A DNA stretch of 64,000 nt from Polyangiaceae bacterium (GCA_044225865.1 JBGAID010000021.1:40280-104279), one strand, 5' to 3'. Positions 3,333 through 47,662 are shown, counted from the first letter of the stretch. The notes: generated from the letters alone by a model not told the origin. Translations and numbers: made by a program.

Positions 3333-3968
3333 AGGCCGCCGGAGCCCGACACGTAACACCGGGCGCGTGACTGGACGTTCTCTCCCAAAGACCCGCCGCG
3401 AAAAAGCCGGGGTGGCTTTGCGAGATCCCCCCTCGCGATTTCGCCGAGATCTGTCGAAACCGCGCCGTCGCCTCGGGGCACGCGCGCAGCGCCCGTCGAA
3501 CTACCGTGACGTTCGCGAAACCGCGCCCCCCCTGCCGCAAAGCCCCCCGCGCTCCTTCGCCATTCATCGATGCCCCCACCGGTCGCGCTGACGCGCGCCC
3601 ACCGCCCCCAAATCGCTCGCTGCGCTCGCTCAGGGGGCGGTCGCACCTGGCGTGATTCGGCTTCAGCGCCGTCCTCGACTCGGCTTGTGTCCTGGTGGAG
3701 CCGAGGGTGAGGCCCCGCCACCCGGCAGGCGGGCTACGAGGTCTCAGCGCGGACGACACCTCGTGCTCGAGACGACTGTGCAGTCAGTCTTCTGGTCTCG
3801 ATTGCTTCGGTCCCGGCGGCGGTAGATTTGCCCGTCCCCGACAGGCGCGTTGCGATCGCGACCACGACGGCGCTGGCATGGGTGAACCGGACCGACGCGT
3901 TCACCGGGCGCGCAAGCAGACGTTCGAGGGGCTCCCCAACCGGGCGAGCTTTCGCTAACAATATCGGT

Positions 3969-5039
3969 GTGAAAGCCGACTTGATCAGCGTGATAGAAGC
4001 CGCCTATCGGGTCGAGCAACGAGAGGGTCGATGGCTCGAGGGGGTGCTCGAGGCCGCGAGCCCGCTGCTCGACCGCGGGATGGGGTGCTCGGCGTTCTTC
4101 TACGACGCCCGCGACGTGGAGCAGCTGCGTCTCCACGGCTTCGTCGCGGCCGGCGCCCGCAACGACGAAGCGATCCTTCGCGCCATCGAGAGATCTTCTC
4201 CCGATCGCGTGGCGTGGGTCTTCCGCACCCAGGCTTGCCGCACCGCGAGCGAGGGCCCGGACTGGGCCAATCAACCGGCGGCCAAGCTCTTCCGGACGTG
4301 GGGAATCACCGACATTCTATTCGTGAACGGCGTCGACCCGAGCGGGATTGGCTGCTTCGTCACCGCCAAGCTCTCCGAAGGGCAGCGCGTCGATCGTGGG
4401 ACCAAGCGACGGCTCGCGCGCCTCGCGGCACACTTCGCGGCGGGGTATCGCCTCGTGCGCAGGCTCTCCGCGCCGCTCGATCCGGATCGCGCCGACGCGG
4501 TGCTCAGTCCATCCGGCAAGTTGCTGCACGCGCGCGAGCCGGCCAAAGACGACGCTTCGCGCGCGGCGCTGCGGGACGCCGCCGTCGCGGTCGAAGGCGC
4601 GCGCGGCTCGCTGCGCCGGCGCGACCCCGACGCGGCGGTCGAGGCGTGGCGCGGCCTCGTCGCGGCGCGCTGGTCGATCGTCGATCGCTTCGAGCATGAC
4701 GGGAAGCGCTTCCTCTTGGCCCAGGAGAACGCGCCCGTGAGCCCCAGCCGGCGCGAGCTCAGCGAGCGGGAGCGCCAAGCCCTCGCGTACGCCAAGCTCG
4801 GGCACTCGAACAAGCTGATCGCCTACGAGCTCGGGATCTCGGCGTCGACGGTGGGTGTGCTGCTATGGAGGGCAGCGAACAAGCTGGGCACCAAGACGCG
4901 GGAGGAGCTGCTCCGCGTGCCGCTGGACGACAGGCAGGAGGCGGAGGGACGTGGCGAGGCGCCGGACTCGAGACGATCCGGGCCCGGTCATGCCGAGGCG
5001 GCCGCTGTCGACGCGGACGAGCGGGGCCGGCCTCTATGA
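3969..5039 (+). CDS. LuxR-family transcriptional regulator (C-terminal HTH)
   Basis: C-terminal LSERERQALAYAKLGHSNKLIAYELGISASTVGVLLWRAANKLG is a canonical LuxR/FixJ HTH. Start placed at GTG 3969 (VKADLISVIEAAYRV). TTG 3828 is an alternative. Long (~630 bp) upstream leader. Confidence 0.65.
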   Translation: MKADLISVIEAAYRVEQREGRWLEGVLEAASPLLDRGMGCSAFFYDARDVEQLRLHGFVAAGARNDEAILRAIERSSPDRVAWVFRTQACRTASEGPDWANQPAAKLFRTWGITDILFVNGVDPSGIGCFVTAKLSEGQRVDRGTKRRLARLAAHFAAGYRLVRRLSAPLDPDRADAVLSPSGKLLHAREPAKDDASRAALRDAAVAVEGARGSLRRRDPDAAVEAWRGLVAARWSIVDRFEHDGKRFLLAQENAPVSPSRRELSERERQALAYAKLGHSNKLIAYELGISASTVGVLLWRAANKLGTKTREELLRVPLDDRQEAEGRGEAPDSRRSGPGHAEAAAVDADERGRPL

Positions 5040-6794: not shown

Positions 6795-7763
6795 TCATCC
6801 GCCGCCCGCGTACTCCCAGCCGAAGCGGCCCTTGATGCACAAATGACCCTCCGTCACGGATGACTCGACGGGAGAGGTCACGCGCACGATGCGATTGTCT
6901 TGAACGCGCATCGTCAGGGCGCATCCGACGCCACAATAGGGACATGTGGTGGTGGTCTCGGTCTGCTTGGATTCGTCCCAGGTCCCGGCGGCGCGCATGT
7001 CGTGCTCGCGCTTGAAGACGAGCGCGCCGGTCGGACAAACCCCGATGCAATTGCCACAGAACACGCAGGCCGAGTCGTCGAGCGGGGTGTCGAGCTCGGT
7101 GGAGATGCGGGCCTCGAAGCCCCGCCCCGCGACCGCGATCGCGAAGGTGTTTTGGGCATCCGTCCCGCACGCCTCGACGCATTTGTAACAGAGCATGCAT
7201 TTCGCGTAGTCGCGTACGAACAGGTCATTGTCGACCTTGGGCGGCTGAGCGACAGTGGCGGCCTGTGCCCCTGTCGAGGGCGCGTGGTGTCCGGCGTGGG
7301 AATGATCCCGAGCGCCCGCCTCGGCGGGGGGAGCGGCGGGGCCGAAGCGCTCCGGCGCGGCGCCATAGCGGACCATCAGGTCGCCGATGCCGGGCGTGGC
7401 GGAGAGATCGACGCTCGAGCCGAGCAGCTCGAGGACGAGCCGGCGCGACGTGCGGACGCGCGGCGAGTCGGTGAGGACCACCATCCCCGCCTCCGCCTTG
7501 CGCGAGCAAGAAGGGACCAGGGTGCGAGCGCCCTCGAGCTCGACGACGCAGATGCGGCAGACGTTCACGGGGGTGAGGTTCTTCGCCCAGCAGAGGGTCG
7601 GAGTGTCGACCCCGCGCGCGCGGCATGCGTCGAGGATCGTCGCGCCTTCGGGGACGGAGACGCTCTCTCCGTCGACGGTGATCGAGACGTCGCGCGTAGG
7701 TCCGTCGCCTCGGTCGCGGAGGGCCCGGGGCGACGCGGGCTGAATGAGGGGCAACCGGATCAC
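6795..7763 (-). CDS. formate dehydrogenase Fe-S subunit: NuoG-like N-terminal module ([2Fe-2S] + 4Fe-4S clusters + MopB-type CxxCxxxC Fe-S domain), separate gene
   Basis: GTG at 7763 with GGAGGTG SD 5 nt upstream; GTGA overlap with the stop of the upstream NuoEF-like gene. Translation VIRLPLIQ...ITVDGESVSVPEGATILDACRARGVDTPTLC ([2Fe-2S] ferredoxin-like) ...CMLCYKCVEAC...CVFCGNCIGVCP (2x 4Fe-4S) ...TCPYCGVGCALTMRV...GHLCIKGRFGWEY (MopB Fe-S domain), then stop (AGGG*). The ORF-track entry 6795..8345 is an artificially long extension. Confidence 0.8.
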   Translation of the reverse strand: MIRLPLIQPASPRALRDRGDGPTRDVSITVDGESVSVPEGATILDACRARGVDTPTLCWAKNLTPVNVCRICVVELEGARTLVPSCSRKAEAGMVVLTDSPRVRTSRRLVLELLGSSVDLSATPGIGDLMVRYGAAPERFGPAAPPAEAGARDHSHAGHHAPSTGAQAATVAQPPKVDNDLFVRDYAKCMLCYKCVEACGTDAQNTFAIAVAGRGFEARISTELDTPLDDSACVFCGNCIGVCPTGALVFKREHDMRAAGTWDESKQTETTTTCPYCGVGCALTMRVQDNRIVRVTSPVESSVTEGHLCIKGRFGWEYAGGG

Positions 7764-9577
7764 GAGGCACCTCCGAAGAGCGCGCCGAGCTCTTTCACCG
7801 CGCTCTCGATCGCGCTCGAGGCCGTCTGACCGAGGCCGCAGATCGAGGCGTCGCGCATCACCTGTCCGAGATCCGCGAGGAGCGCGTGCTCCGCCTCCAC
7901 CGAGCCCCGCGGAGACTTGCGAACGAGGCGGGTCACGAGCTCCTCCTGCCGAACGGTGCCGACGCGGCACGGGATGCATTGGCCACAGCTCTCGTCGCGG
8001 AAGAAGCGCGCGAGCCGCTCGAGCACGGGCCCGATCGGGATCGACGCGTCGAGGACGAGGACCACGCCGGACCCGAGGGTCGCGCCCGCTTTGCGGACAT
8101 CCTCGAAGGTCAGCGGCAGATCGAGCTTGGACTTGCCGACGAAGGTGCCCGCGGCGCCGCCGAGCAGCACCGCCTGGACATCGCCAGCGCCCGCGAGCTC
8201 CAGCAGCTCGGAGAGCTTCGCCCCGAACGGGAGCTCGTAGAGGCCGGGGCGCTCGACCTTGCCCGAGACGCAGAAGAGCCGCGTGCCTGGCGAGCCCGCG
8301 GTGCCCGCGTGCCGGTACGCGGCCGCGCCGTGGGTGAGGATCCACGGCACGTTCGCGAGGGTCTCGACGTTGTTCACGACCGTCGGCCGCCCGAACAAAC
8401 CGGCCTCGACCGGGAACGGGGGCTTGGTCCGAGGCTCACCCCGGAAGCCCTCGATCGAAGCGAAGAGCGCCGTCTCCTCGCCGCAGATGTACGCGCCCGC
8501 GCCCCGCCGGAGCTCGATATCGAAGCGGACGCCTTTGCCCATGAGGTCGGGACCGAGATAGCCCCGCGCGCGCGCTGCCTCGATCGCACCAGCCAGCCGG
8601 GCGTGGGCGAGCGGATACTCCGCGCGGACATAGAGGAAGCCGAGCTCGGCGCCGACGGTGGTGCCCGCGATCGTCATCGCCTCGACGACGGCGAACGGGT
8701 CTTCCTCCATGAGGACGCGGTCCTTGAACGTGCCTGGCTCGGACTCGTCCGCGTTGCAGACGAGGTACTTGGGCCGGCCCGCCGCGGAGGCGACCGCCTG
8801 CCATTTGCGGCCGGTGGGGAAGGCGGCGCCGCCCCGACCCACGAGGCCGCTCTCGGTCACCTCTCGCAAGACGAACGCTGGACCGCGATCGAGGGCGAGG
8901 CGGAGCGCGCCATAGCCTCCGTGGGCGCGGTAGTCGTCGAGGCTCGTCGGGTCGACCCGACCGACGCGGTCGAGCAAGCGCAGCGGGAAACGCCCCCCGT
9001 CACGTCCTCTTTGGGGCACGGACGAAGCGCGCGCTGCGGAACCTCTCCCTTCATGGAGCGCGCCGAGCACCGCGCCCGGTGCGACCGGGCCCCACGCGTC
9101 CTCCTTCGACGAAGCGCCCGCGCTCACGCGGTACACGGCGGGGGCGCGCTCGCAGAGACCGAGACAGGGGCTCGAGTGCCAAGCCATGCCGTGCTTCGGC
9201 TCGCCCTCGGCGGAGTGCTCCTTGGCGAGGACCTCCTTCAGCGCGGGCGCGCCCGCGGCGTGACAGGCCAGGTCGTCGCAGACGTGGAGCGCGAGCGGCG
9301 GCCGCTCCGTGAGGGAGAACAGGGCATAGAACGTCGCCACCCCAAACGCCTCTGCGGGCGGGACGTGGAGCCGCTCGCAGGCGTGGCCGAGGGCACCGGG
9401 AGGGATCCAGCCGAAGCGCGCCTGGATCGCGTGGAGCACCGGCAAGAGGAGGTGGCGCAGCGATCTCGCCTCGCGCAGCCCCACCGTCGGGTGCGGGCTC
9501 TCGATCGCGCCGATGATCGCGTCGACGGCTTCGCGCTCTTCGGAGGTCGGCTTCGTTCGAATGGGGTGGAGATCCAC
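7760..9577 (-). CDS. fused NuoE-like/NuoF-like NAD(H)-binding flavoprotein-FeS subunit (FdsG-FdsB fusion)
   Basis: N-terminal thioredoxin-like [2Fe-2S] NuoE region (HVCDDLACH...CLGLCERAP). C-terminal NuoF region with GGAAFPTGRKW, CNADESEPGTFKDR and ESCGQCIPCRVG 4Fe-4S motif. GTG start 3 nt after the stop of the FDH catalytic gene. Confidence 0.85.
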   Translation of the reverse strand: MDLHPIRTKPTSEEREAVDAIIGAIESPHPTVGLREARSLRHLLLPVLHAIQARFGWIPPGALGHACERLHVPPAEAFGVATFYALFSLTERPPLALHVCDDLACHAAGAPALKEVLAKEHSAEGEPKHGMAWHSSPCLGLCERAPAVYRVSAGASSKEDAWGPVAPGAVLGALHEGRGSAARASSVPQRGRDGGRFPLRLLDRVGRVDPTSLDDYRAHGGYGALRLALDRGPAFVLREVTESGLVGRGGAAFPTGRKWQAVASAAGRPKYLVCNADESEPGTFKDRVLMEEDPFAVVEAMTIAGTTVGAELGFLYVRAEYPLAHARLAGAIEAARARGYLGPDLMGKGVRFDIELRRGAGAYICGEETALFASIEGFRGEPRTKPPFPVEAGLFGRPTVVNNVETLANVPWILTHGAAAYRHAGTAGSPGTRLFCVSGKVERPGLYELPFGAKLSELLELAGAGDVQAVLLGGAAGTFVGKSKLDLPLTFEDVRKAGATLGSGVVLVLDASIPIGPVLERLARFFRDESCGQCIPCRVGTVRQEELVTRLVRKSPRGSVEAEHALLADLGQVMRDASICGLGQTASSAIESAVKELGALFGGAS

Positions 9578-9580
9578 GGG

Positions 9581-11515
9581 CTACTCGGCGGCGGTGACGT
9601 TGGCGCTGATCTTCTCGATGCGGACAGCGGCGGCCTTGAACTCCGCCGTCCCCGACTTGGGATCGGTGGCGTCGATGGTGAGGACGTTCGTGTCGATCTC
9701 GTTGGGGAAGTGGAACGTCATGAAGACGAGCCCGGGGCGGAGCCGCGCGCTGATGCGCGCGGGCACGTCGAGCGAGCCGCGGCGCGACGAGACGCGGACG
9801 ATCTCTCCGTCCGCGACGCCGAGCCGAGCCGCGTCCTCGGGGCACAGATCGACCGTCTCCCCGCGCCGCAGCGGCGAGCGGTAGCTCCCCGACTGCACGC
9901 CGGTGTTGAACGAGGAGAGGCGACGCCCGGTCGTGAGCCGGAACGGGAAGTCCGCGTCGAGCGCCTCCACCGGGCCTCGCTGCTCGGTGCAGTGAAACGG
10001 CGCGCGGGGGCCCACGAGCGGCTCGGCCCAGAGGCGTCCGTGGAGGAACGGGGAGCCCTCGCTCGCCTCGTCGGGGCAGGGCCATTGCACCCCGCCGAGC
10101 CGCTCGAGCTTCTCGTAGCTCATGCCGGCGTGCATCGGCGAGAGGGTGCGGAGCTCCTCCCAGAGCTCGCGCGGGGTCGGGTCCCCGAGGTCACGCCCGA
10201 GGTGCCGCGAGAGGTCCGCGATGATCGCGATGTCGTCGCGCGCTCCTTGGGGAGGGGAGACGGCCCGGCGCACGCGCTGGACGCGTCGCTCGCTGTTGGT
10301 GACCGTCCCCTCCGCCTCCGCGAAGCTGGCGGTGGCCGGCAGGACCACGTCGGCGAGCTCGGCGGTGCGGGTGAGGAAGATATCCTGCACCACGAGGATC
10401 TCGAGGCCCTCGAGCAGGTGGGTCGCGTGCTTCGAGTCCGCCTCGGATTGGGCGGGGTTCTCGCCGATCACGTAGAGGGCGCGCATCTCGCCGCGCTCCA
10501 TCGCTTCGAACATCTGGGTGAGGTGCCAGCCCGCCTTCGGCGGGATCGTCACCCCCCAAGCGCGCTCGAACTTCGCGCGGGCCGCTTCGTCCTCGACATC
10601 CTGGAAGCCGGTGAGCTTGTGGGGCAGCGCCCCCATGTCGCCCCCGCCCTGGACGTTGTTCTGGCCGCGGAGCGGGTTCAGCCCCGAGCCCCATTTTCCG
10701 ACATGGCCGGTGAGGAGCGCGAGGTTGATCAGCGAGAGGACATTGTCGACCCCGTCGTGATGCTCGGTGATGCCGAGCGTCCAGCAGATCATGGCGCGGT
10801 CGGCGCGCGCGTAGTCCCGCGCCGCCTGCTCGATGAGGGCGGGGGCGATGCCCGTCTGCGCCGCCACGCGCTCGAGGGGATAGCGCTCGAACACGTGCGC
10901 TCGGTAGGCCTCGAAGCCCGTCGTCGCGCGCTCGATGAAGGCGCGGTTCTCGAGCCCCTCCCGCAGGATGACGTGGGCCATCCCGTTCGCGAGGGCGATG
11001 TCGCTCCCGACGTCGAGGCCGAGCCAGCCGTCCGCCCAATCCACCGACGTCGTCCGGCGGGGATCGACGGCGTAGAGCTTCGCCCCGCGGCGCACCCCCT
11101 TCAGCACGTGGTGGAAGAAGATGGGGTGCGTCTCGCGCGCGTTCGAGCCCCACAGAAGGATGACATCCGTCTCTTCCGCTTCGCGATAGGAGCTCGTGCC
11201 GCCGCCTGCTCCGAAGACCGTCGCCAGACCGACGACGCTGGGGGCGTGTCAGGTTCTGTTGCAGCTGTCGATGTTGTTCGACCCGATCGTCGACCGGATG
11301 AACTTCATCGCCATGTAGTTCACCTCGTTGGTCGCCTTCGAGCACGAGAAGATCCCGAAGGTCCGGGGGCCGTGGGCGTCGACGGAGGCACGGATCCCTC
11401 CCGCCGCCCGCGCCATCGCCTCTTCCCATGTCGCCGGGCGCAGCGGCCCGCGCGTCCCGTCGGGGTTTCGGTCACGCACGAGGGGCTGGGTGAGGCGCGG
11501 GAGAGGCTTTCGCAT
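9581..11515 (-). CDS. fdhA: formate dehydrogenase catalytic (molybdopterin) subunit with in-frame TGA read as selenocysteine (around 11249-11251); lacks the usual N-terminal Fe-S domains
   Basis: ATG 11515 with GGAG SD. Two ORF-track pieces (11249..11515 and 9581..11107) are in the same frame, separated only by TGA. Translation ...FGIFSCSKATNEVNYMAMKFIRSTIGSNNIDSCNRT-U-HAPSVVGLATVFGAGGGTSSY... aligns with the FdhF active-site block CARVUHGPSVA. Downstream MopB and molybdopterin dinucleotide-binding domains, ending ISANVTAAE*. No Fe-S N-terminal domain is present in this gene. Confidence 0.8.
11213..11238 (-). promoter_or_regulatory. candidate bacterial SECIS hairpin immediately 3' of the in-frame UGA
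   Basis: mRNA: UGA CAC GCC CCC AGC GUCGUCG-GUCUGG-CGACGGU. A 7-bp stem (including 2 G·U pairs) whose apical region contains GGUCUG, as in the E. coli fdhF SECIS (GCAGGUCUGCACC). Begins 13 nt after the UGA. Confidence 0.5.
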
Positions 11516-11581
11516 GGCGGGCTCCGAGGGGCGGCAGCATACCGGAGCAGGCGGGCGAATCCCACTCGCGCGAGTGGAAAG

Positions 11582-12643
11582 ATGGGCCTCCGCGCGCTAA
11601 GCGTCCACGTTGTGTCGCGCATCGGACAAGCCCTCGTTCGGCACTCCCTCTCCGAGGCCGTCGACGACTTGCGCGCGGACGTTTGGTCCTCCCTCGCCGA
11701 CGAGGCGGTCCTGGAGCGCCTCCCCCTCGAGGTCGATCGCGACGCCTCCGAGCTCACCGCGGGGAGCCGGCCCCAAGTGGTGCTGCGAGACCGGGGGGGC
11801 CGGAGATACCTCTTCAAGCTCGCACCGCCCGACCAGATCGCGGCGGAGCTCCTCGCGTACCGAACGAGGCGCGCGCTCCGTCGCCTCCATGTCCCGGCGG
11901 CGCGGCGCACGATGAAGCTGCCCGAGCTCGGCGAGCGCGAAGGCCTCGTGCAGCCGATGATCCCGCACCATCAGGCTCGCCTGTCGACGGATCCCCTCCA
12001 TTGGACGGCGCTCGCGACGGAGCACCTCCTCCGCGAGCACCCTTGGGAGTGGCTCCTCGCCAACCTCGACACGCACGTCGACCAATACGTGCTCGTCGGT
12101 CCCCACCGGCTCCCTATCAATATCGATTGGGACCACACGCTCGTCGACCTCGACGTGGAGGCATTGGATCGCTTCAACAAGCGCAGCGCGACCGTCGCCC
12201 CGATTCGGAACCTGTTCTATTCCGAGTATGTGGCCGGCCGCGTCCGCGGCGACTTCTATGGCATGCTCCTCGAGGCCCGGCGCATCGAAGCGCGGCTCTC
12301 CGACCGCCGCCTCTCGACGCTCGTGAACCGCTATTGTGATGAGCTCGCCTTGGGGCGGGAGCGCCGCCGTGAGCTCGTGAGCCGGCTCCTTCGCCGGAAG
12401 CGAGGGCTGCCCGCGGCCTTCGATGCGTTCGTCGCCGAGCTCGACCACGATCGGCGGGTCACCCTCGGCGTGGCGACGTCCCGCAAGACGGCCGTCGAGC
12501 AGCTGGCCGCGCGCGCCCAGGACGCTTGGCAGCGACTGTCCATTACCGTCCTCCACGACCACGTCGTGAGACCAAGCTTGAAGGCCTACCGCGCCGTGCT
12601 CGGGGTCGGCGAGCGGGTCATCGGACGCGCCGCCCGCGATTGA
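11582..12643 (+). CDS. hypothetical protein (353 aa), divergent from the FDH operon
   Basis: ATG 11582. Diverse composition (W/Y/F/N/I) and strong GC3, unlike the R/G-rich remainder of the 1585-aa track ORF. HWTALATEHLLREHPWEW...DTHVDQYVLVGP...INIDWDH is faintly kinase/phosphotransferase-like. Confidence 0.55.
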   Translation: MGLRALSVHVVSRIGQALVRHSLSEAVDDLRADVWSSLADEAVLERLPLEVDRDASELTAGSRPQVVLRDRGGRRYLFKLAPPDQIAAELLAYRTRRALRRLHVPAARRTMKLPELGEREGLVQPMIPHHQARLSTDPLHWTALATEHLLREHPWEWLLANLDTHVDQYVLVGPHRLPINIDWDHTLVDLDVEALDRFNKRSATVAPIRNLFYSEYVAGRVRGDFYGMLLEARRIEARLSDRRLSTLVNRYCDELALGRERRRELVSRLLRRKRGLPAAFDAFVAELDHDRRVTLGVATSRKTAVEQLAARAQDAWQRLSITVLHDHVVRPSLKAYRAVLGVGERVIGRAARD

Positions 12644-12667: not shown

Positions 12668-15292
12668 TCAGACGAGGGCGAACGCGCTCACGATCTGCTC
12701 CGATGCAGCCGACCCGCGATAGAGCGGAGCGGCGGCCAGGACCGACCGCACGATCGGCCCCGCCACCTCCGCCTCTTGCGCGTCGAAGCCGCTCAAGATC
12801 GCGGCGACGGAGCTGGGAAGCCCATCCGGCAACGCCTCGCCGAAGGGACGGGTGAGCAATGCAATCGCGAGCGCGGCCCGGCCCGCGTCGTCACCGGTGG
12901 TCGTGCCCACGAGCTTGCGGAGGCTCGCGAGGGTGCGCTTGAGCTCGGCTTTGAAGAGGCCTTCGCGGTGCGAATGCCCCCGCGCGACGAGCGCCGCCAC
13001 CGCCGCGAGGGTGACCGCGAGATCGCCCCCGAAGATCCCGTCTGCCCCTTGCAGGAGGATCAGCGCGCGAAGCCCCGCCTCGTCGTTGGTGAGGGTCGGC
13101 GGCGGCGCCGCCGCGCGCGCGGGCTGCGCCGGGAGCGCCACCGATCGCGGTACGGCGGGCGCGGGGGCCCGCATCGCGACGGGCGGCGGAGGCGGAGGCG
13201 CCGCGGGAGGAGGGGGTGGCGCGAAGCCTTGGGGAGCGGCCATTCCCATCGGCGCCATCCGGGGCGGAGCGGCCATCGAAAGCGGCACCGGCGGCCCGAA
13301 GCCTGGCGGTCCCCCGAAGCCGCCCGCGAGAGGTGGGCCTGCCGAGAACGCCGCGGAGACGACGTTGGCCGGCATCGGGAGGGCGACGGGGATGCTGCCC
13401 GTCACCACCACCCCGCGATCGTCGCCGTGGGTCGCGACGAGGGCGACGGCGCGATTGGCGAGGCCGAACGCCGTTCCCAGCGCCTCCAGCGTCGGATCGT
13501 CGGCAGCATCGAACTTATAAGTGAGCCGCCTGTTCTTGAGCAGCGCCCACACGAGCGGAGCGACGCCTTCCCCTTGCTCGTTCGAGGCGACCGCGCCCAC
13601 GTCCACGCTGAGCCGCAGGTCTTCTCCGTCGGCGCGCTGCCCCGTCAGGACGATGCGGTCGCCCGCCTCGACCGCGCCGCGAAACGCGAAGAGCGCCGGC
13701 TCGCCCCCAAACAGATCGAGCGGCCCCGCGGGCTCGAGCTGCCTCGGCGCGCGCAGATCTCCGGCGTGGTCGACCGCGACCTTGATGGTCGTCCACAGCG
13801 GTGCGTAGATCGCGTTCTTCAATCGACTGAGGGCGCGCTCGAGGTCCTCGTCCGTGGTGACGGGGATGTAGACCCCGCCCCCCGCCGCCGCGAGCGACGC
13901 GAGCATCGCGTGGTTGACCGAGTTGCCGATGCCGATGACGTGGACGCGCGTATCGACGAGCTTCGCCCGCGCGGCCGCGAGCACGGCCTCCGCGTCCCCC
14001 ACATCGCCGTCGGTCATGAAGACCACCACCCGAAGGCGATGAGGCGCGTCGTCGCCCTTGGTCGGCGCCGTCATCGACACCGCCGCGTCTCCAAGACGCG
14101 CGTCCAGGACCGCGCCGATCGCGAGGGACGCGTGCGTCCCCCCTCGGGAGGAGATGCTCCCGATGAAGGCGTCGGCCGCGGCCAGCATCCTGTCGTCGAA
14201 CGGCACCGGGCGATCGGCGAACGCCTCCAGCGCGTCGTCGAACGCGAGGATGTTGAACCGGTCAACGGGACTGAGGGCGCGCAAGCAGCCGCGCACCGCT
14301 CGAATGGCGGAGCTCATCGGACCGGAGGCCATCGACCCGGAGCGATCGACCAAGAAATGAATGGTCCTCGGAATGACCGGCCCCTCGTCGGCATACGCGG
14401 GCGGCACGATCGCAATCGCGGTCGTCGGTCCCGCCCCATCGGGGCCGGGGGTCGCGTCGTAGCGATGCCACAGCACCGGCACTTCACCCGGCGGCCGGTC
14501 TCCAATTTCCAGGATGAAGTCCCGATCGAGCGGCGCGGGCCCCATCTTCACGACCGTCACCCTCCCCTCCCCCGCGCTCGCAGAGGTGGGGTGGCTCGCG
14601 CACTTGAGCTTGGGCGCGCCCGCGGGCCCGTGCGCGACCGAGACCTGGACCTTCGCGCGCGCGGCGAGGATGAGCGGCCGGGGGCGGTCCACCGCCGCCG
14701 CCTCGATCGGCTTGAGGGCGGCAGGATCCTCCACGAAGCGCGGCATGTACGTGAGCGGGACGATCAAGCGGTGGCCGCCGTCCGTCGGGAGCAGCGTCTG
14801 CACCACCCCCAGCACGACCTCGACCCGCTCGCCCGCCTCGATCGGGGCCACGCGCAGCTGCGCGAGGTCCTCGCCCTCCGTCTCCCCGAGGGCGGCCGTC
14901 TTGCCCGCCTCGAGCGCGCGCGTGTACTCGGCAGCGGCCCGGTCGCGCGCGCGGATCTTCGCCGTGAGGGCGCGCCCGCCGACCGTGACCACGAGCTTCG
15001 CGAGCGCGGCCGAAGGCGGCAAAGGAAAGATCAGATCGCCTTCGACGACCCGCCCGAGGTCGTTCTCGAAGACGACGGCGAGCTCCGAGAGCGCGAAGGG
15101 GCCGTCGACGACCACCTCCGCGTCGAGGCTACGCACCGAGAGATGATCCCCCTGGGCCGTCTCGAGCTGCACGCCCCAGCGCCGGTCGCGCCTTCGGGGA
15201 GGCTCCGCCGCCGCGTCGGTCAGCGGCCAGGTGCACACAGCGCAAGCCGTCAGATTGTTCGCGTTCGGCGCCCCGCACCTTGCACAGTTCAT
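12668..15292 (-). CDS. VIT (vault protein inter-alpha-trypsin) + von Willebrand factor A domain protein with N-terminal zinc-ribbon and Pro-rich region
   Basis: N-terminal MNCARCGAPNANNLTACAVC zinc ribbon, then a VIT-like beta region. vWA MIDAS motif FLVDRSGSM...TDG. Pro-rich low-complexity linker (PPPPPAAPPPPPP). Confidence 0.8.
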   Translation of the reverse strand: MNCARCGAPNANNLTACAVCTWPLTDAAAEPPRRRDRRWGVQLETAQGDHLSVRSLDAEVVVDGPFALSELAVVFENDLGRVVEGDLIFPLPPSAALAKLVVTVGGRALTAKIRARDRAAAEYTRALEAGKTAALGETEGEDLAQLRVAPIEAGERVEVVLGVVQTLLPTDGGHRLIVPLTYMPRFVEDPAALKPIEAAAVDRPRPLILAARAKVQVSVAHGPAGAPKLKCASHPTSASAGEGRVTVVKMGPAPLDRDFILEIGDRPPGEVPVLWHRYDATPGPDGAGPTTAIAIVPPAYADEGPVIPRTIHFLVDRSGSMASGPMSSAIRAVRGCLRALSPVDRFNILAFDDALEAFADRPVPFDDRMLAAADAFIGSISSRGGTHASLAIGAVLDARLGDAAVSMTAPTKGDDAPHRLRVVVFMTDGDVGDAEAVLAAARAKLVDTRVHVIGIGNSVNHAMLASLAAAGGGVYIPVTTDEDLERALSRLKNAIYAPLWTTIKVAVDHAGDLRAPRQLEPAGPLDLFGGEPALFAFRGAVEAGDRIVLTGQRADGEDLRLSVDVGAVASNEQGEGVAPLVWALLKNRRLTYKFDAADDPTLEALGTAFGLANRAVALVATHGDDRGVVVTGSIPVALPMPANVVSAAFSAGPPLAGGFGGPPGFGPPVPLSMAAPPRMAPMGMAAPQGFAPPPPPAAPPPPPPVAMRAPAPAVPRSVALPAQPARAAAPPPTLTNDEAGLRALILLQGADGIFGGDLAVTLAAVAALVARGHSHREGLFKAELKRTLASLRKLVGTTTGDDAGRAALAIALLTRPFGEALPDGLPSSVAAILSGFDAQEAEVAGPIVRSVLAAAPLYRGSAASEQIVSAFALV

Positions 15293-24264: not shown

Positions 24265-25824
24265 ATGCGCCGAGGCGCCCCCGGCAACGAGAGAGTCTCG
24301 ATCGGTCGTTACGAGATCGTCGGGCCGCTCGCGTTCGGCGGGATGGCCGAGGTCGTGCTGGGCCGCGTGCGCGGGCCGAGCGGCTTCGAGCGCCCCGTCG
24401 TCATCAAGCGGATCCTGCCGCACCTCGCCCGCGAGGCGGAGTTCCGCCAGATGTTCCTCGACGAGGCGCGGATCGCCGCCCGCATTCGCCACCCGAACGT
24501 CGTGTCCGTCGAGGAGCTCGGCGAGGCCGCGGATGACCTCTACCTCGTCATGGAGTACCTCGAGGGGGAGAGCCTCTCGACCCTCGGCAAGCTGCTCGCG
24601 AAGCGGAGCGAGGCCCTCTCTCCGCGGTTGGCTGCTCACATCGTCGCGGAGGCGTGCGCAGGTCTCCACGCCGCCCACGAGCTGAAGGGACCGGACGGCG
24701 CGCCGCTCTCCGTGGTGCATCGGGACGTCTCTCCGCAGAACGTCTTCGTCCTCTACGAAGGGCACGTGAAGGTCATCGACTTCGGCATCGCCAAGGCGAA
24801 GACCAGCGAGTCGAAGACCCGCACCGGACAGGTGAAGGGGAAGTTCGCGTACATGGCGCCGGAGCAGCTGCTCGCCCAGCCCTCGATCGATCGGCGCGCG
24901 GACGTCTTCGCCCTCGGCATCCTGCTGTTCGAGCTCAGCACCGGCACGAGGCTCTTCGAGCGCGCGAACGATTTGATGGTCCTGCGCGCGGTCTGCGAGG
25001 ATCCGCTGCCGCTGCCCACCAGCCAGGTCCCCGGCTACCCGAAATCGCTGGAGGAGATCTACCTTCGCGCCCTCAGCCGCAACCCGGAAGGTCGCTATGC
25101 GACGGCGGCGGCGATGCGGCGCGACTTGCTCGCGGCGCTGAAGGATATCCCCTCCACCGAGCCGGCCGAAGAAGAGCTCTCCGCCCTCATGATGCAGCTG
25201 TTCGAGGACCGGATCGCGAAGAAGCGCGCGATGCTCGCGAGCCTCGAGCGGGGAGAGCAAGTCACGGAGCTGCCGCCCGGAGAGGACTCGTTTCGCTCGA
25301 GCAAAGAAGCAGAGACCGAGGCGGCCGCTCCGGAGCCGCCCGCCTCGGTGGTGGCGGCGGAGGCCCCCTCCGCGACGAGGACGAATGTCGTCGCGGGGGG
25401 CGAAGAGGCAAGAGAGCGACCTGCTCGATCGCGCTGGCCGTTGATGGTCGTCGGGCTGGCGGTGCTCGTCGTCGCGGCGGTCGCGGTCCCGATGGCGCTC
25501 CGAGGACCTCGCCAGGCGGCCGACGTCGAGGCCGGGCGAGCGAGCGCGCCCCCACCGGAGGCGGCCGCGACGACCGCGATCCCCGCGATCACCGTCTCGC
25601 CTTCCATCCCTACCACCACCCCATCGGGCAGCCCCACAGAGGCAGTCTCGAGCGCCAACGCCTCCCGCCCGACCGCCTCCGCGGACGCCTCCGCGGGGGT
25701 CGCGGCCGCCGATGCCCAAGCGCGCTCCAAGCCCAGAGTGGGAGCCCCTCCGCCTCCTCCGAAGACGGCCGCGCCCTCTGCCGAGCCCGCAAAATCCAGC
25801 ACGGGCTTCCGACGATTCGACTGA
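24265..25824 (+). CDS. Ser/Thr protein kinase with C-terminal TM helix and Pro/Ala-rich extracellular tail
   Basis: Hanks kinase subdomains (GxGxxG-like GPLAFGGMAEV, VIK, HRDVSPQN, DFG, APE). TM segment WPLMVVGLAVLVVAAVAV. Confidence 0.85.
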   Translation: MRRGAPGNERVSIGRYEIVGPLAFGGMAEVVLGRVRGPSGFERPVVIKRILPHLAREAEFRQMFLDEARIAARIRHPNVVSVEELGEAADDLYLVMEYLEGESLSTLGKLLAKRSEALSPRLAAHIVAEACAGLHAAHELKGPDGAPLSVVHRDVSPQNVFVLYEGHVKVIDFGIAKAKTSESKTRTGQVKGKFAYMAPEQLLAQPSIDRRADVFALGILLFELSTGTRLFERANDLMVLRAVCEDPLPLPTSQVPGYPKSLEEIYLRALSRNPEGRYATAAAMRRDLLAALKDIPSTEPAEEELSALMMQLFEDRIAKKRAMLASLERGEQVTELPPGEDSFRSSKEAETEAAAPEPPASVVAAEAPSATRTNVVAGGEEARERPARSRWPLMVVGLAVLVVAAVAVPMALRGPRQAADVEAGRASAPPPEAAATTAIPAITVSPSIPTTTPSGSPTEAVSSANASRPTASADASAGVAAADAQARSKPRVGAPPPPPKTAAPSAEPAKSSTGFRRFD

Positions 25825-44230: not shown

Positions 44231-46870
44231 TCAGTTTCCGTGGACTTCGGTCAGCTTCGCCGCGGTCGCGCCGTCGAGATCGCCACTCGGCTCGAGGTCG
44301 TGATCCTCCTGGAAGTCGATGATCGCCTGCTTCGTCTTGGGGTCCATCCCCGGGCCGGCGCCCGTCTCGTAGCCGAGGTTCGCGAGGCGGGTGCGAGCGC
44401 CCTCCGTCGTCGAGGCGGGCTCCGGGTCTTCAATCGCGATGTCCCAGACGTGGCGCTTCCCCGCCGGAGGCTCTCCCTCCCAGAGGACGAGGTGGGCCTT
44501 CGTCGCGCCCTTCGGAATGTCCTGCGCCACCGTACCGTCCCCGCTCGTCGTGCCGGAGTATCTTCGGCCGTCGACCGTCAATTCATAGGGACGGCTCGCG
44601 TAGGGCTGGAAGGCGCCATCGCTCAGCTTCAGCTTGAACGGCTGCGTCTCGGGCGGCGCCGCATCGGCCGTCGCTTTGGGCGGGTCGCCCTCTCGATAGC
44701 CGAGCTTGATCGCGGCCCCCTTCGTGTAGACGTCCTTGGTGAGCTCGAAGCTCGACCCGGTGCCGAAGAAGCGCGCGGCGGGGGCGGAGATCTTCGCCTC
44801 GCCGTCCAGGGCCACGATCGACCTGTCGCTCTTCACGGTGGTGCTCTCGGCGCCATTGACCACGATCTCCTTGGCGGTGATCTCGACACGGTCGGGCGTC
44901 ATGCGCAGCACGCTGTCTCCGCATTGAATGGTCACGCTCCGCTCCGCGTGGAGGACGAGATCCTCATCGGCGCCGAGGTTCCACGAGCCGGTCGCGTGGA
45001 GGGCGGCGGAGGCGGGCGCGTCGATCCCCACATTCACTCCCAGGCCTCCAATGGCGGTCAGGCTCGCGTCGTGATCGACGCGCACGCTCGCGGTCGCGTG
45101 GTAGCGCGCAGTCGCCGCTCCCGTCACCTCGACCGTGTCGACGCCGCCGACGACGTCGGCTCGGTTGCCGGTGACATTGGACGAGACATTCCCCGTCGTG
45201 TCCTCCGCGCGATTGCCCCGCACGACGTCGAGCTTGTCGCCGCCGACGGCGAGGCTCTGCTTGCCCGTCACGCTCTCGCTGCGGTTGCCGCCGATCGTGA
45301 TGGAGCGATCTTTCGCCACGGTCGTCGTTTGGTTCGCCCCGACCGTCTCGGTCAGGTGCTTCTCGGCGCGGAGCTCGATCGCCTCCTCGCCGAGCTTGTC
45401 CTCGAACGCGAGCTCGTTGTAGCCCTTCCCTCCCGGCATGGATCGGGTGCGGATCCCGCTGCGCGTCTGGCCCGACGCCTTCGCGTAGATCGGCGGGTGC
45501 TCCGCGTTGGGGACGCTCCCGATGACGATGGGCCTGTCCACGTCTCCCCCGAGGAAGGCGACGAGCACTTCCATCCCGATGCGCGGAATGAATTGAAAGC
45601 CCCAGCCCGCACCTGCCCACGGCTGCATGACTCGGAGCCAGCACGACGTGGCCCCGTCGAGCTTGCCCTCGCGGTCCCAATGAAACTGCACCTTGATGCG
45701 ACCGAGATCGTCCGTGAACAGCTCATTGCCGGGCGGCCCCACGACGACCGCTGTCTCGAGCACCTGTTGAATCCGCGGAGCGGGCGGTTCGGGCCGGAAC
45801 ACCGTCGTCGAGGGGACGGCGCGAAACGTGTTTCGATAGGGCGGCTCGTTCGACGCGCCGCCGTCGTAGTGAGGGTCGCGACCGAAGTGATCGACGCTCA
45901 CGACCGTGTAGGTCCCGTCGTGCGACTCGAGATCGGCGTCTGCGATCTCGATCCCCATGCCGGCGGCGAGGGACGCGTTCTCGGTGTCCCCGCGCGCCAC
46001 CCACCGCAGGCGCCGGTGCTGCTCGAGGCGCACCGAGGCGAGCGCGCTGGAGGTGGCGATCGGGTCGAGGACGCCGTCGTGATGATATTGCTCGCCCTCC
46101 TCTCCCTCCTTCGCCTCCGCCTTCAGATCGAGCGACGGACGATTGAAGTCGAAGTCCTTCACCACCACCGAGCCCGCGTGCGCGCGCCGCTCGAGGCTGA
46201 ATCGGCGAACGTCAGGGGTGTCGCTCCGTTGTCCATAGTCCTCGCGCGGGTGGAGCTTGGGGGCGCCCGGGACGAGGGCGCACGCGGTCGCGCTGCTCGC
46301 GAGGACGAGCACCTCTTTGCCGCGCTCGTCCGCCTGCTGCTCAAAGAAATAGAAGCTCCCATCCTCGGCGAGCAACCGCTCGACGAAGGCGAGATCGGTC
46401 TCTTGGAATTGGACACAATACTCGCGGTGCGAGATGTCTGTGGCGGACCGGTCGGAGACGTCCAACCCCGAGGCAGAGAGCACCTCGGAGATGATGGCGC
46501 CCGTCGACTTGTCCTGGAAGACGCGGCTGTTCCGCTTGAGAGAGACGAGCGCGAGGCGCGGGACCACCTCGAAGGTGTAGAGCCGCATCTCGGGCCGGCT
46601 CCGGGGCGCGCCCGTGACCGCGACGCTCCGAACCACCCCGTGCACCCACCGCCGTGCCCGAGCGTCGCCGAACCCGAGGTGGCACGTCTTGCCGACGTAT
46701 TGGTCCTCGACCGTCTTCGCGTCGAGGGGGGCGCGCTCCACTCGAACCTCGAAGCGATAGGGGGTCGAGATCGCCTCGACGCCCGAGAAGCTGGTCACGA
46801 CGAGGTGCTCGGGGGCCCCGTCCACGTCGAATTCGAACAGCTCATCCTGCGCCGCGGCCATGCGCGCCAT
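44231..46870 (-). CDS. vgrG: type VI secretion VgrG spike protein with C-terminal peptidoglycan-binding domain
   Basis: ATG 46870 (MARMAAAQDELFEFDVDGAPEHLVVTSFSGVEAISTPYRFEV); ATG 46861 is an alternative. gp27-like and gp5-like OB/beta-helix regions (VVGPPGNELFTDDLGRIKVQFHWDR...). C-terminal TRLANLGYETGAGPGMDPKTKQAIIDFQEDHDLEPSGDLDGATAAKL PG_binding_1-like domain. The 5' extension in the track ORF is junk. Confidence 0.85.
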   Translation of the reverse strand: MARMAAAQDELFEFDVDGAPEHLVVTSFSGVEAISTPYRFEVRVERAPLDAKTVEDQYVGKTCHLGFGDARARRWVHGVVRSVAVTGAPRSRPEMRLYTFEVVPRLALVSLKRNSRVFQDKSTGAIISEVLSASGLDVSDRSATDISHREYCVQFQETDLAFVERLLAEDGSFYFFEQQADERGKEVLVLASSATACALVPGAPKLHPREDYGQRSDTPDVRRFSLERRAHAGSVVVKDFDFNRPSLDLKAEAKEGEEGEQYHHDGVLDPIATSSALASVRLEQHRRLRWVARGDTENASLAAGMGIEIADADLESHDGTYTVVSVDHFGRDPHYDGGASNEPPYRNTFRAVPSTTVFRPEPPAPRIQQVLETAVVVGPPGNELFTDDLGRIKVQFHWDREGKLDGATSCWLRVMQPWAGAGWGFQFIPRIGMEVLVAFLGGDVDRPIVIGSVPNAEHPPIYAKASGQTRSGIRTRSMPGGKGYNELAFEDKLGEEAIELRAEKHLTETVGANQTTTVAKDRSITIGGNRSESVTGKQSLAVGGDKLDVVRGNRAEDTTGNVSSNVTGNRADVVGGVDTVEVTGAATARYHATASVRVDHDASLTAIGGLGVNVGIDAPASAALHATGSWNLGADEDLVLHAERSVTIQCGDSVLRMTPDRVEITAKEIVVNGAESTTVKSDRSIVALDGEAKISAPAARFFGTGSSFELTKDVYTKGAAIKLGYREGDPPKATADAAPPETQPFKLKLSDGAFQPYASRPYELTVDGRRYSGTTSGDGTVAQDIPKGATKAHLVLWEGEPPAGKRHVWDIAIEDPEPASTTEGARTRLANLGYETGAGPGMDPKTKQAIIDFQEDHDLEPSGDLDGATAAKLTEVHGN

Positions 46871-46939
46871 CTTCGATGCCGCCACCACGCCGGGCAAGGG
46901 CCACGCGCGGAGTGACAGTTCGCTCCCAATCTGGCAACA

Positions 46940-47662
46940 ATGCCCCCCGTGAGGTCTGCACCGAAATGGCGGCTCTATGCGACCTGGGAGCCGCGGCCGG
47001 AGCCGCCCGCGGACGCGGTCGATCGGCTCCTCGTCCTCTTCGACGCCCTGCGGGCAGGCTCCGATCGCGCTTGGACCGCCGCCCTCGGCAAGTCGGCCCA
47101 GCCCCACCCTTGCCGCGACGGCGCTTCCGTCGAGTGGGCGCTCCGCGCCGGCAGCTTTCCACTCGAGCGACGCCCTCGCGCGGGCGACTTCAGCTGTCAA
47201 AGCTTCTATCTGGGCACCTTCCGCCGCTGGGAGAGCAAGCTCACCGTCGCGTGCGGCGCCCGCGACAAAGTCGCCAATATCGAGACTCCCAACCGAATCG
47301 AGATCTCGGGCACCCACGAGCGGGAGCCCCAATCCCTCCGCGAGCTCCTCGTCGTCGTGATCGCCGCCTTCCGCCCCGCGTGGGCGTTCATCGCTCGTGG
47401 CGACGCCCCCCAGTTTCCCGTCCCCGGAATGGCCACCCCCACCGTGGGATGGATCACCTATCTATCGTCCGCGTTCGGCCCGGTCCCGCCTCACCCGTGC
47501 CTCAGCCCCGTCCCCGTCCCGCGCTTCGGCACGCTGGTCCAAATCGCCAAAGACGGAGAGAGGATCGAAGAGAGCTCCGTCGCTCAGCTGCGCGCGGTGA
47601 CGCGAGCATTGAAGAGCGCAGGGGTGTTTCGATCAGAACGTGAGTCGAAGCGAGAGCCCTGA
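46940..47662 (+). CDS. hypothetical protein divergent from vgrG (240 aa)
   Basis: Strong GC3, W/Y/F-containing composition. 70-bp divergent intergenic region with vgrG. No domain recognised. Confidence 0.5.
   Translation: MPPVRSAPKWRLYATWEPRPEPPADAVDRLLVLFDALRAGSDRAWTAALGKSAQPHPCRDGASVEWALRAGSFPLERRPRAGDFSCQSFYLGTFRRWESKLTVACGARDKVANIETPNRIEISGTHEREPQSLRELLVVVIAAFRPAWAFIARGDAPQFPVPGMATPTVGWITYLSSAFGPVPPHPCLSPVPVPRFGTLVQIAKDGERIEESSVAQLRAVTRALKSAGVFRSERESKREP

Follow-up and report, generated by a model that had tools for sequence, protein, structure and literature searches.

Among described formate dehydrogenases (FDHs), the systems closest to the one considered in this article are the FdsABG(D) enzyme of Rhodobacter capsulatus and Cupriavidus necator (6tg9; PMC7171172), the tungsten enzyme FDH1 of Methylorubrum extorquens AM1 (7e5z, 7vw6), and FDH3 of the actinomycete Actinomycetospora chiangmaiensis DSM 45062 (Rohwerder et al. 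2020, PMC7176365, Table 1 and Suppl. Fig. S4). The subject of this article is a set of three genes on the minus strand of a 64,000-nucleotide (nt) stretch of DNA from a Polyangiaceae bacterium (GCA_044225865.1, JBGAID010000021.1:40280-104279), and this whole stretch is referred to below as the window. The genes, for a catalytic protein, a NuoE-NuoF fusion and a stand-alone iron-sulfur (Fe-S) module, very probably encode a cytoplasmic, selenocysteine (Sec)-dependent FDH containing molybdenum or tungsten, which passes electrons from formate to nicotinamide adenine dinucleotide (NAD+).

FDH3, as presented in the table and supplementary figure cited above, consists of FdhA3 (640 aa, with Sec at position 80, a predicted Sec insertion sequence (SECIS), and homology restricted to the part of FdsA/Fdh1A at the C-terminus that binds the pterin), FdhB3 (614 aa, a NuoE/NuoF fusion) and FdhC3 (316 aa, "a separate but homologous" Fe-S protein in place of the N-terminal domain of the alpha subunit). 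The same source labels it a cytoplasmic NAD+-dependent FDH and reports that all three subunits are present in the proteome and are raised 2–3 fold on 2-hydroxyisobutyrate, a substrate that yields formate, and that formate removal by A. chiangmaiensis is selenium-dependent (PMC7176365). The evidence given there for FDH3 is proteomics together with the selenium phenotype, with no purified enzyme. The window proteins have the same domain layout and similar lengths (644, 605 and 322 aa against 640, 614 and 316), with Sec at residue 89 instead of 80; the host differs, being a Polyangiaceae-like myxobacterium and not an actinomycete.

FdsABG has the same cofactor chain as the window enzyme, namely bis-molybdopterin guanine dinucleotide, the FS0 cluster, two [4Fe-4S] clusters, a [2Fe-2S] cluster, the NuoF-type [4Fe-4S] cluster and flavin mononucleotide (FMN), and the NuoE-type [2Fe-2S] cluster. 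FdsA, however, is one chain of ~958 aa with an active-site Cys, whereas the alpha subunit in the window is split between the positions equivalent to FdsA residues 303 and 308. FdsA also carries cluster A4 (His117/Cys121/124/130) at the dimer interface, which the window enzyme lacks, and FdsG and FdsB are separate NuoE- and NuoF-like subunits, whereas the window has a fusion. The fds genes run fdsGBACD and include one for the FdsD subunit, while in the window the order is rotated to catalytic - NuoEF - Fe-S. FDH1 (Fdh1A/Fdh1B) is likewise soluble and NAD+-linked, and its beta subunit is a NuoE-NuoF fusion as in the window, with 7e5z_B matching residues 212-601 of the window fusion. In contrast, Fdh1A is a single chain of ~990 aa with Cys, to which only residues 187-319 of the window Fe-S module align.

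Escherichia coli FdhH (FdhF) shares with the window enzyme the Sec-His active site and the conserved Arg, and the catalytic protein aligns to its residues 60-690. It differs in that FS0 is in the same chain, that it has no NuoEFG-type partners, and that it works in the formate hydrogenlyase complex. A precedent for a molybdenum- or tungsten-bis-pterin catalytic polypeptide encoded in two genes is provided by FwdB/FwdD of formylmethanofuran dehydrogenase, where the separate piece is the C-terminal cap domain; in the window it is the N-terminal FS0 domain with the NuoG-like clusters. The M. wolfeii case of this division is noted in PMC7171172. To our knowledge, the group described here is the only one among the molybdenum- or tungsten-bis-pterin enzymes whose FS0 and pterin domains are carried by separate polypeptides.

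The window enzyme has neither a single-chain alpha subunit nor cluster A4, and the accessory gene fdsC/fdhD is absent from its operon (FdsD was not specifically searched for); it is therefore filed with the split FDH3 type, whose mode of working would be that of FdsABG and Fdh1AB, and not with these two enzymes. As judged from its sequence, it is a genuine and functional member of a recognised but biochemically uncharacterised class of FDHs, and its layout is real but common. What our comparison adds to the published description is incremental: that the genes stand in a rotated order, that A4 has been lost, and that the class is spread over many phyla with Sec near-universal outside the actinomycetes. 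In text searches of the main text and supplement of PMC7176365, the rotated order, the A4 loss and the multi-phylum spread were not mentioned. The split FDH was likewise not mentioned in the general FDH literature that we searched, the description being found in the literature on formyl-CoA metabolism. The window copy by itself adds little, being a well-conserved myxobacterial and otherwise ordinary member of a class that is frequent among soil and water bacteria. The class as a whole is under-studied and appears to be a widespread route from formate to NADH in aerobic heterotrophs, and with its division at the boundary between FS0 and the pterin domains it offers, ready-made in nature, a two-part form of an enzyme that attracts interest for CO2 reduction.

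The divided alpha subunit and its partners

The three genes are closely packed (Table 1). The GTG of the fusion gene is found three bases past the catalytic TAG (TAG-ccc-GTG), and the GTG of the Fe-S gene overlaps the TGA of the fusion gene (GTGA). The Fe-S gene ends with a stop codon at 6797..6795, following ...GHLCIKGRFGWEYAGGG, and this end lies just past the MopB 4Fe-4S domain. A sequence-only reading of the same DNA had assigned these coordinates, junctions and starts, all of which hold, and its anatomy is correct to the residue when compared with the sequence, Pfam, TIGR01591 and FdsA alignments. One qualification concerns the frame of the catalytic gene: its limits stand, but the frame is not open, containing at codon 89 an in-frame TGA on which that reading did not comment. 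Scanning the locus for promoters and terminators gave nothing useful.

Table 1. Genes and signals of the FDH locus (positions counted from the first letter of the window)
Feature	Position	Strand	Remarks
Shine-Dalgarno-like GGAG	11522..11525	-	6 nt 5' of the catalytic ATG; read directly from the sequence
Catalytic gene (fdhA-like)	9581..11515	-	644 codons; ATG 11515, TAG 9583..9581
In-frame TGA, codon 89, read as Sec	11249..11251	-	context NNIDSCNRT-TGA-HAPSV; Sec/Cys-His position of FDHs
SECIS core hairpin (predicted)	11219..11237	-	nt 15-33 past the U of UGA; 7-bp stem, loop GGUCU
NuoE-NuoF fusion (fdhB-like diaphorase)	7760..9577	-	605 aa; GTG start 9577
Fe-S module (fdhC-like, stand-alone)	6795..7763	-	322 aa; GTG start 7763

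The catalytic protein contains pterin domains only (Molybdopterin PF00384, E = 4.3e-68; Molydop_binding PF01568, E = 1.9e-28). The FS0 domain that precedes them in other FDHs, comprising PF04879 and positions 1-48 of the NCBIfam Fdh-alpha model TIGR01591, is located on the separate Fe-S protein. The TIGR01591 model is thus divided between the two proteins: its positions 1-48 match the Fe-S protein over the final 50 residues, and positions 52-672 match the catalytic protein. The same is true of R. capsulatus FdsA (6tg9_A), of which residues 24-303 are covered by the Fe-S protein and residues 308-932 by the catalytic protein, so that nothing is lost. The claim that the polypeptide is cut directly after the MopB Fe-S domain is borne out by the clean division of both TIGR01591 and FdsA. 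The active-site triad consists of Sec89-His90 and Arg283 (in NPLRGQNNVQG), which align with the same residues of solved FDHs. We considered separately that the protein might be the NuoG of complex I, which has a degenerate pterin domain without active-site Cys or Sec and is found in a nuo operon, and rejected this identification on account of the intact active site.

The Fe-S protein is composed of Fer2_4, two Fer4 and Molybdop_Fe4S4 domains (Pfam). Its cluster ligands can be assigned as C58, C69, C72 and C86 for the [2Fe-2S] cluster, C189/192/195/199 and C233/236/239/243 for two ferredoxin-type [4Fe-4S] clusters, and C274, C277, C281 and C309 for FS0, and these Cys residues are invariant in 41 homologs. 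Between residues 87 and 188 there is no Cys or His motif that could represent the His/Cys3 ligands of the A4 [4Fe-4S] cluster. None of the split modules examined has the A4 motif, which the NuoG controls do have. Whether the module might be truncated relative to homologs, a weakness that the sequence-only reading had named for its own proposal, can be answered in two parts: it is full at both ends, but it is without the A4 ligands found in FdsA. In the R. capsulatus enzyme (RcFDH), A4 is situated at the dimer interface, off the main electron path (PMC7171172), and the chain from molybdenum to FMN would therefore remain intact despite the loss of A4. Searching a library of representative sequences with the Fe-S module returned mostly metagenomic fragments, from which the line dividing split from fused forms could be drawn no more precisely.

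The fusion protein combines the Pfam domains 2Fe-2S_thioredx, Complex1_51K, SLBB and NADH_4Fe-4S (NCBIfam nuoF_fam, E = 3.3e-126), and its PDB matches include FDH beta subunits (FdsB, Fdh1B) and NuoF. It has the ligands of the NuoE [2Fe-2S] cluster (C100, C105, C138, C142) and of the N3-type [4Fe-4S] cluster (C531, C534, C537, C580), with the FMN motif at 247 and the NADH motif at 275. The combination of a separate NuoG-like Fe-S subunit with NuoE- and NuoF-like proteins is also found in the Hyl and Hyd complexes, and chains of bifurcating HydA and HydB are among the PDB matches, which could suggest an electron-bifurcating or ferredoxin- or hydrogen-linked complex of the HylABC-FdhF2 or HydABC kind. 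The domain content of the fusion speaks otherwise: NuoE, 51K, SLBB and the N3 region are all that the Pfam scan finds on its 605 aa, with no extra ferredoxin-type cluster domains, which argues against a bifurcating enzyme. In addition, no hydrogenase or ferredoxin genes are conserved nearby and the His-ligated cluster is absent. The lineages that host split FDHs are mostly aerobic heterotrophs, a lifestyle that counts against bifurcation as well, and we regard this alternative as highly improbable. As a separate observation, ARAGORN reports a 97-nt tRNA-Arg(tcg) at 8395..8491 (-), within the NuoEF coding region; the call is probably a false positive, the Rfam tRNA model having no match there at its gathering score.

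The selenocysteine codon and its hairpin

The in-frame TGA of the catalytic gene occupies the Sec/Cys position of FDHs. The codon at this position is TGA in 65/65 related loci with a readable active site, always within a near-invariant peptide, and it is TGC in homologs from Saccharopolyspora, Streptomyces and uncultured organisms. Immediately 3' of the TGA is a short hairpin (Table 1) that can be aligned across 59 sequences with 96.4% of cells paired. To separate constraint on the RNA from constraint on the protein, we can use the third positions of four-fold degenerate codons. In 103 conserved columns of such codons from 63 genomes, the mean third-position entropy is 1.39 bits, and it is zero only at codons +5, +6, +7 and +9 past the UGA; the Leu codon at +8 is likewise invariant. 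The genes of the Cys type serve as a natural control, and in them the nucleotide string of the hairpin is not kept. The third-position entropy and the Cys-type control together show that the hairpin is under constraint at the RNA level. Its register is that of the SECIS of E. coli fdhF, the loop nucleotides G23/U24 being at an equal distance from the UGA, and the two elements also agree in their spacing, in a GGUC-type loop and in the codons GGU CUG.

With its in-frame UGA and fdhF-like SECIS, the catalytic subunit is a predicted selenoprotein, a property missed by the sequence-only reading. Its synthesis would require SelB-dependent recoding of the UGA at 11251..11249, directed by the hairpin directly 3' of it. 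Database entries for homologs of the catalytic protein are mostly 500-560 aa long, that is, truncated by gene callers at the Sec codon, and genome-based surveys therefore probably under-count split FDHs. A separate observation concerns a metagenome contig of 2183 nt from the European Nucleotide Archive (P0292), which encodes a 645-aa catalytic homolog with 67% identity and with Arg at the Sec/Cys position (SCNRT-R-HAPSV). The codon could have changed from TGA to CGA, the sequence could contain an error, or the copy could be inactive.

Spread and conservation of the layout

Among the database matches to the Fe-S protein, the best 120 without exception stand alone, have the same domains and are 300-392 aa long (one has 510 aa). 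In addition, a scan of species-representative genomes yielded 79 loci from other species, and the comparison set was formed by loci with at least 48% identity that are long enough to hold three genes. Within this set, drawn from at least nine phyla, the split does not vary, and the order catalytic, NuoEF, Fe-S on one strand is found nearly always; the departures are loci in which unrelated genes are inserted or a catalytic gene is missing from the vicinity. The split loci belong to Myxococcota, Planctomycetota, Acidobacteriota, Armatimonadota, Gemmatimonadota, Rokubacteria, Acidimicrobiia and Limnochordia, and their Fe-S genes all stop 2-30 codons past the GW.. motif, the sole exception being frameshifted (L049). 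The closest relative is a Polyangiaceae metagenome-assembled genome (MAG) with 80-87% identity (L004), and comparison with it gives ratios of nonsynonymous to synonymous substitution rates (dN/dS) of 0.15 for the catalytic gene, 0.20 for NuoEF and 0.15 for the Fe-S gene, values that show purifying selection.

The layout extends to cultured organisms. The search with the catalytic protein found full-length homologs of the Cys type (635-659 aa, 61-63% identity) in Saccharopolyspora species and a Streptomyces, and the same three genes in the same order are present in all three of the cultured actinomycete genomes examined, two from Saccharopolyspora and one from Streptomyces. The window proteins are 63% (catalytic), 58% (NuoEF) and 65% (Fe-S) identical to the Saccharopolyspora trio, and the assignment to the FDH3 type also rests on the orthology to this same layout in Saccharopolyspora (Pseudonocardiales) shown by these protein comparisons. 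The stand-alone Fe-S protein occurs also in Nocardiopsis, Lentzea, Amycolatopsis, Actinomadura and others, and some of its records are named "NAD-dependent formate dehydrogenase iron-sulfur protein". Close fused relatives were not retrieved; the only fused genes found are that of an archaeal Cys-FDH, with 40% identity, and, with 35-36%, three for NuoG, which are followed by nuoH and are genuine NuoG genes (L080-L082).

These data bear on the possibility that the locus is a broken gene or an assembly artefact, in which a canonical alpha subunit of the FdsA type was disrupted, through rearrangement or a frameshift, and left in non-functional pieces. One might think so given that the cut lies within a single polypeptide of every solved relative and that the catalytic frame holds a stop codon. 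However, the identical cut, nearly always with the same gene order, recurs in independent assemblies of many phyla and in cultured actinomycetes, every piece begins with a start codon of its own, the dN/dS ratios are 0.15-0.2, and the apparent stop is a conserved UGA followed by a constrained hairpin. Moreover, the subunits of FDH3 have been detected as proteins, according to the proteome data of PMC7176365. An artefact is, in our judgement, a practically negligible possibility. The sequence-only reading had described a functional, split and order-rotated three-subunit FDH of the NAD type, not a pseudogene, and had suggested looking for the same split and order in other genomes. Both are found in many phyla and in cultured actinomycetes, and together with the low dN/dS this recurrence bears out that description. 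Its estimate of novelty was too high: the layout occurs widely, cultured actinomycetes included, and the supplement of PMC7176365 already describes it. As for the origin of the rotated order, an [EF][FeS-cat] operon that was duplicated in tandem and then lost its outer pieces would be expected to leave such an order. A further copy of part of the Fe-S module is seen in a Terriglobia MAG (L029) at 11398..11973, where a second, partial copy with 60% identity covering residues 124-319 is located ~5 kb downstream of the complete operon.

Proposed electron path and genomic neighbourhood

The electron path in the Sec-dependent FDH that we consider very probable can be drawn by taking the order of clusters from homology to RcFDH (PMC7171172). 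Formate would be oxidised at the bis-pterin molybdenum or tungsten site of the catalytic subunit, formed with Sec89, His90 and Arg283, and the electrons would cross the subunit interface to FS0 at the C-terminus of the Fe-S protein. They would then pass through the two ferredoxin-type [4Fe-4S] clusters and the [2Fe-2S] cluster of the same protein, and finally reach the N3-type [4Fe-4S] cluster and FMN of the NuoE-NuoF fusion, where NAD+ would be reduced. The NuoE [2Fe-2S] cluster of the fusion (C100/105/138/142) would be the equivalent of N1a, off the path. We infer the assembly of the three proteins into one complex, as well as the catalytic direction and the metal.

In the window the operon has a convergent DUF1361 gene on one side and a divergent gene on the other, and the flanks are unrelated to FDH (genes for the DUF1361 membrane protein, a protein without family match, a VIT-vWA protein and acyl-CoA dehydrogenases). 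Elsewhere, fdhD adjoins the operon in 17 of the 82 loci first collected and in two more (L086 and L087), the second of which also has a mobA-like gene and a gene for formate-tetrahydrofolate (THF) ligase; formate-THF ligase is found at L002 as well. The Streptomyces operon has fdhD downstream, and an uncultured relative of the Cys type has fdhD and a divergent formate-THF ligase gene upstream and a mobA-like gene downstream. The Saccharopolyspora operons adjoin genes for a thiamine pyrophosphate-dependent decarboxylase or lyase, a family III CoA-transferase and an acyl-CoA synthetase. These genes could represent oxalyl-CoA decarboxylase with formyl-CoA transferase or, alternatively, a set built on 2-hydroxyacyl-CoA lyase; formyl-CoA or formate would be the product in both cases. 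The loci of Acidimicrobiia have as neighbours an MttB-like methyltransferase, a glucose-methanol-choline (GMC) oxidoreductase and electron-transfer flavoprotein (ETF) genes, as read from representative sequences and not from a Pfam scan.

Metal-dependent FDHs are reversible (PMC7171172), and an enzyme working mainly in reverse, as an NADH-dependent CO2 reductase feeding formate to folate-linked one-carbon assimilation, would fit the formate-THF ligase genes that adjoin the operon in one planctomycete locus and in the uncultured Cys-type locus, the latter of which also has GCV_T and 5-formyltetrahydrofolate cyclo-ligase genes. The ligase, however, serves the release of formate from formyl-THF too, the Saccharopolyspora neighbours would supply formate or formyl-CoA, and the Acidimicrobiia operons are found among MttB-like, GMC-oxidoreductase and ETF genes. 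Reduction of CO2 by NADH is also thermodynamically uphill. A. chiangmaiensis, in turn, is reported to accumulate formate when selenium is lacking (PMC7176365). Taken together, a role mainly as CO2 reductase appears improbable to us, and formate oxidation remains the preferred direction.

The reading of the three genes as one Sec-dependent, NAD+-linked FDH also has evidence that weighs against it. The TIGR01591 score of the catalytic protein alone is 636.8 bits, under the cut-off of 666.25; the Fe-S protein supplies 50.2 bits for the missing N-terminus, and a rough sum is 687. An AlphaFold2 model of the Fe-S module alone, built with 41 close homologs, has a predicted local distance difference test (pLDDT) value of 65.7 and a disordered ferredoxin region, and a Foldseek search with this model ranks FdsA (6tg9_A) first at a template modelling (TM) score of 0.46, which lends weak support. 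For the hairpin, covariation in the stem is minimal and shuffles are uninformative because the stem is nearly invariant. The Rfam search gave nothing at gathering score, SECIS models included, and the best match below it, SECIS_3 with 13.8 bits (E = 2) at 11193-11254 against a gathering score of 63, is at the right place without being significant. There is no FdhD homolog anywhere in the 64-kb window, nor are selA, selB, selD or tRNA-Sec present in it, and the Sec competence of the organism is deduced from conservation. The likeness to FDH3 (WP_084681743.1, WP_018332443.1, WP_018332444.1) is drawn from the published description and not from these sequences. The heterotrimer and the specificity for NAD+ rest on homology and gene context, no enzyme of the split type having been purified or solved. 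Finally, five loci (L020, L021, L051, L053, L059) have the NuoEF-Fe-S pair without a catalytic gene inside the fetched flank, and in three others (L017, L023, L037) the catalytic gene is parted from the pair by unrelated genes, some on the opposite strand. Transcription of all three genes as a single unit is therefore not universal.

The last two groups of loci are what one would expect if NuoEF and the Fe-S module constituted a free-standing diaphorase for several molybdoenzymes, with the adjacent catalytic gene as one client among others. On the other hand, the module carries in its FS0 domain precisely the piece that the catalytic subunit lacks, pairing with a catalytic gene is the rule on contigs of sufficient length, some orphan pairs still have fdhD beside them, and no alternative partner has been identified. 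We consider a general diaphorase quite improbable, and continue to favour a dedicated three-subunit FDH.

Within such an FDH, the separate FS0 domain would make NuoEF and the Fe-S protein a detachable module. In operons of the Sec type, the position of the UGA-containing gene at the head and the close spacing of the genes that follow (TAG-ccc-GTG, GTGA) can then be read as a selenium gate on assembly, in which successful decoding of Sec could control the synthesis of the partner proteins. This is an unlikely, though conceivable, interpretation. It is weakened because unrelated genes part the catalytic gene from the rest in the three loci with intervening genes (L017, L023, L037), and because the operons of the Cys type keep the same gene order.

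Other parts of the window contain features of a different nature. Domains related to vault proteins are present twice in this bacterial sequence: in a 982-aa protein at 30710..33658 (-), the shoulder and vault-repeat domains of Major Vault Protein are recognised (E about 1e-8), and an 874-aa protein at 12668..15292 (-) has VIT (vault protein inter-alpha-trypsin) and von Willebrand factor A (vWA) domains and a long Pro/Ala-rich region. A 1297-aa RHS-repeat protein, a VgrG-like spike and a phage-tail-sheath-like protein are listed for 33495..37388 (+), 44231..47332 (-) and 57550..58857 (+), respectively, the spike having Phage_GPD, gp5 C-terminal and OB domains together with a C-terminal peptidoglycan-binding domain. 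The G+C content of the window drops to 0.64-0.66 over 56-62 kb. These features point to a contractile injection system, or one resembling type VI, that carries toxin cargo. A Ser/Thr protein kinase at 24265..25824 (+) and a LuxR-family (GerE) regulator at 3828..5039 (+) are typical of myxobacteria and unlinked to the FDH operon.

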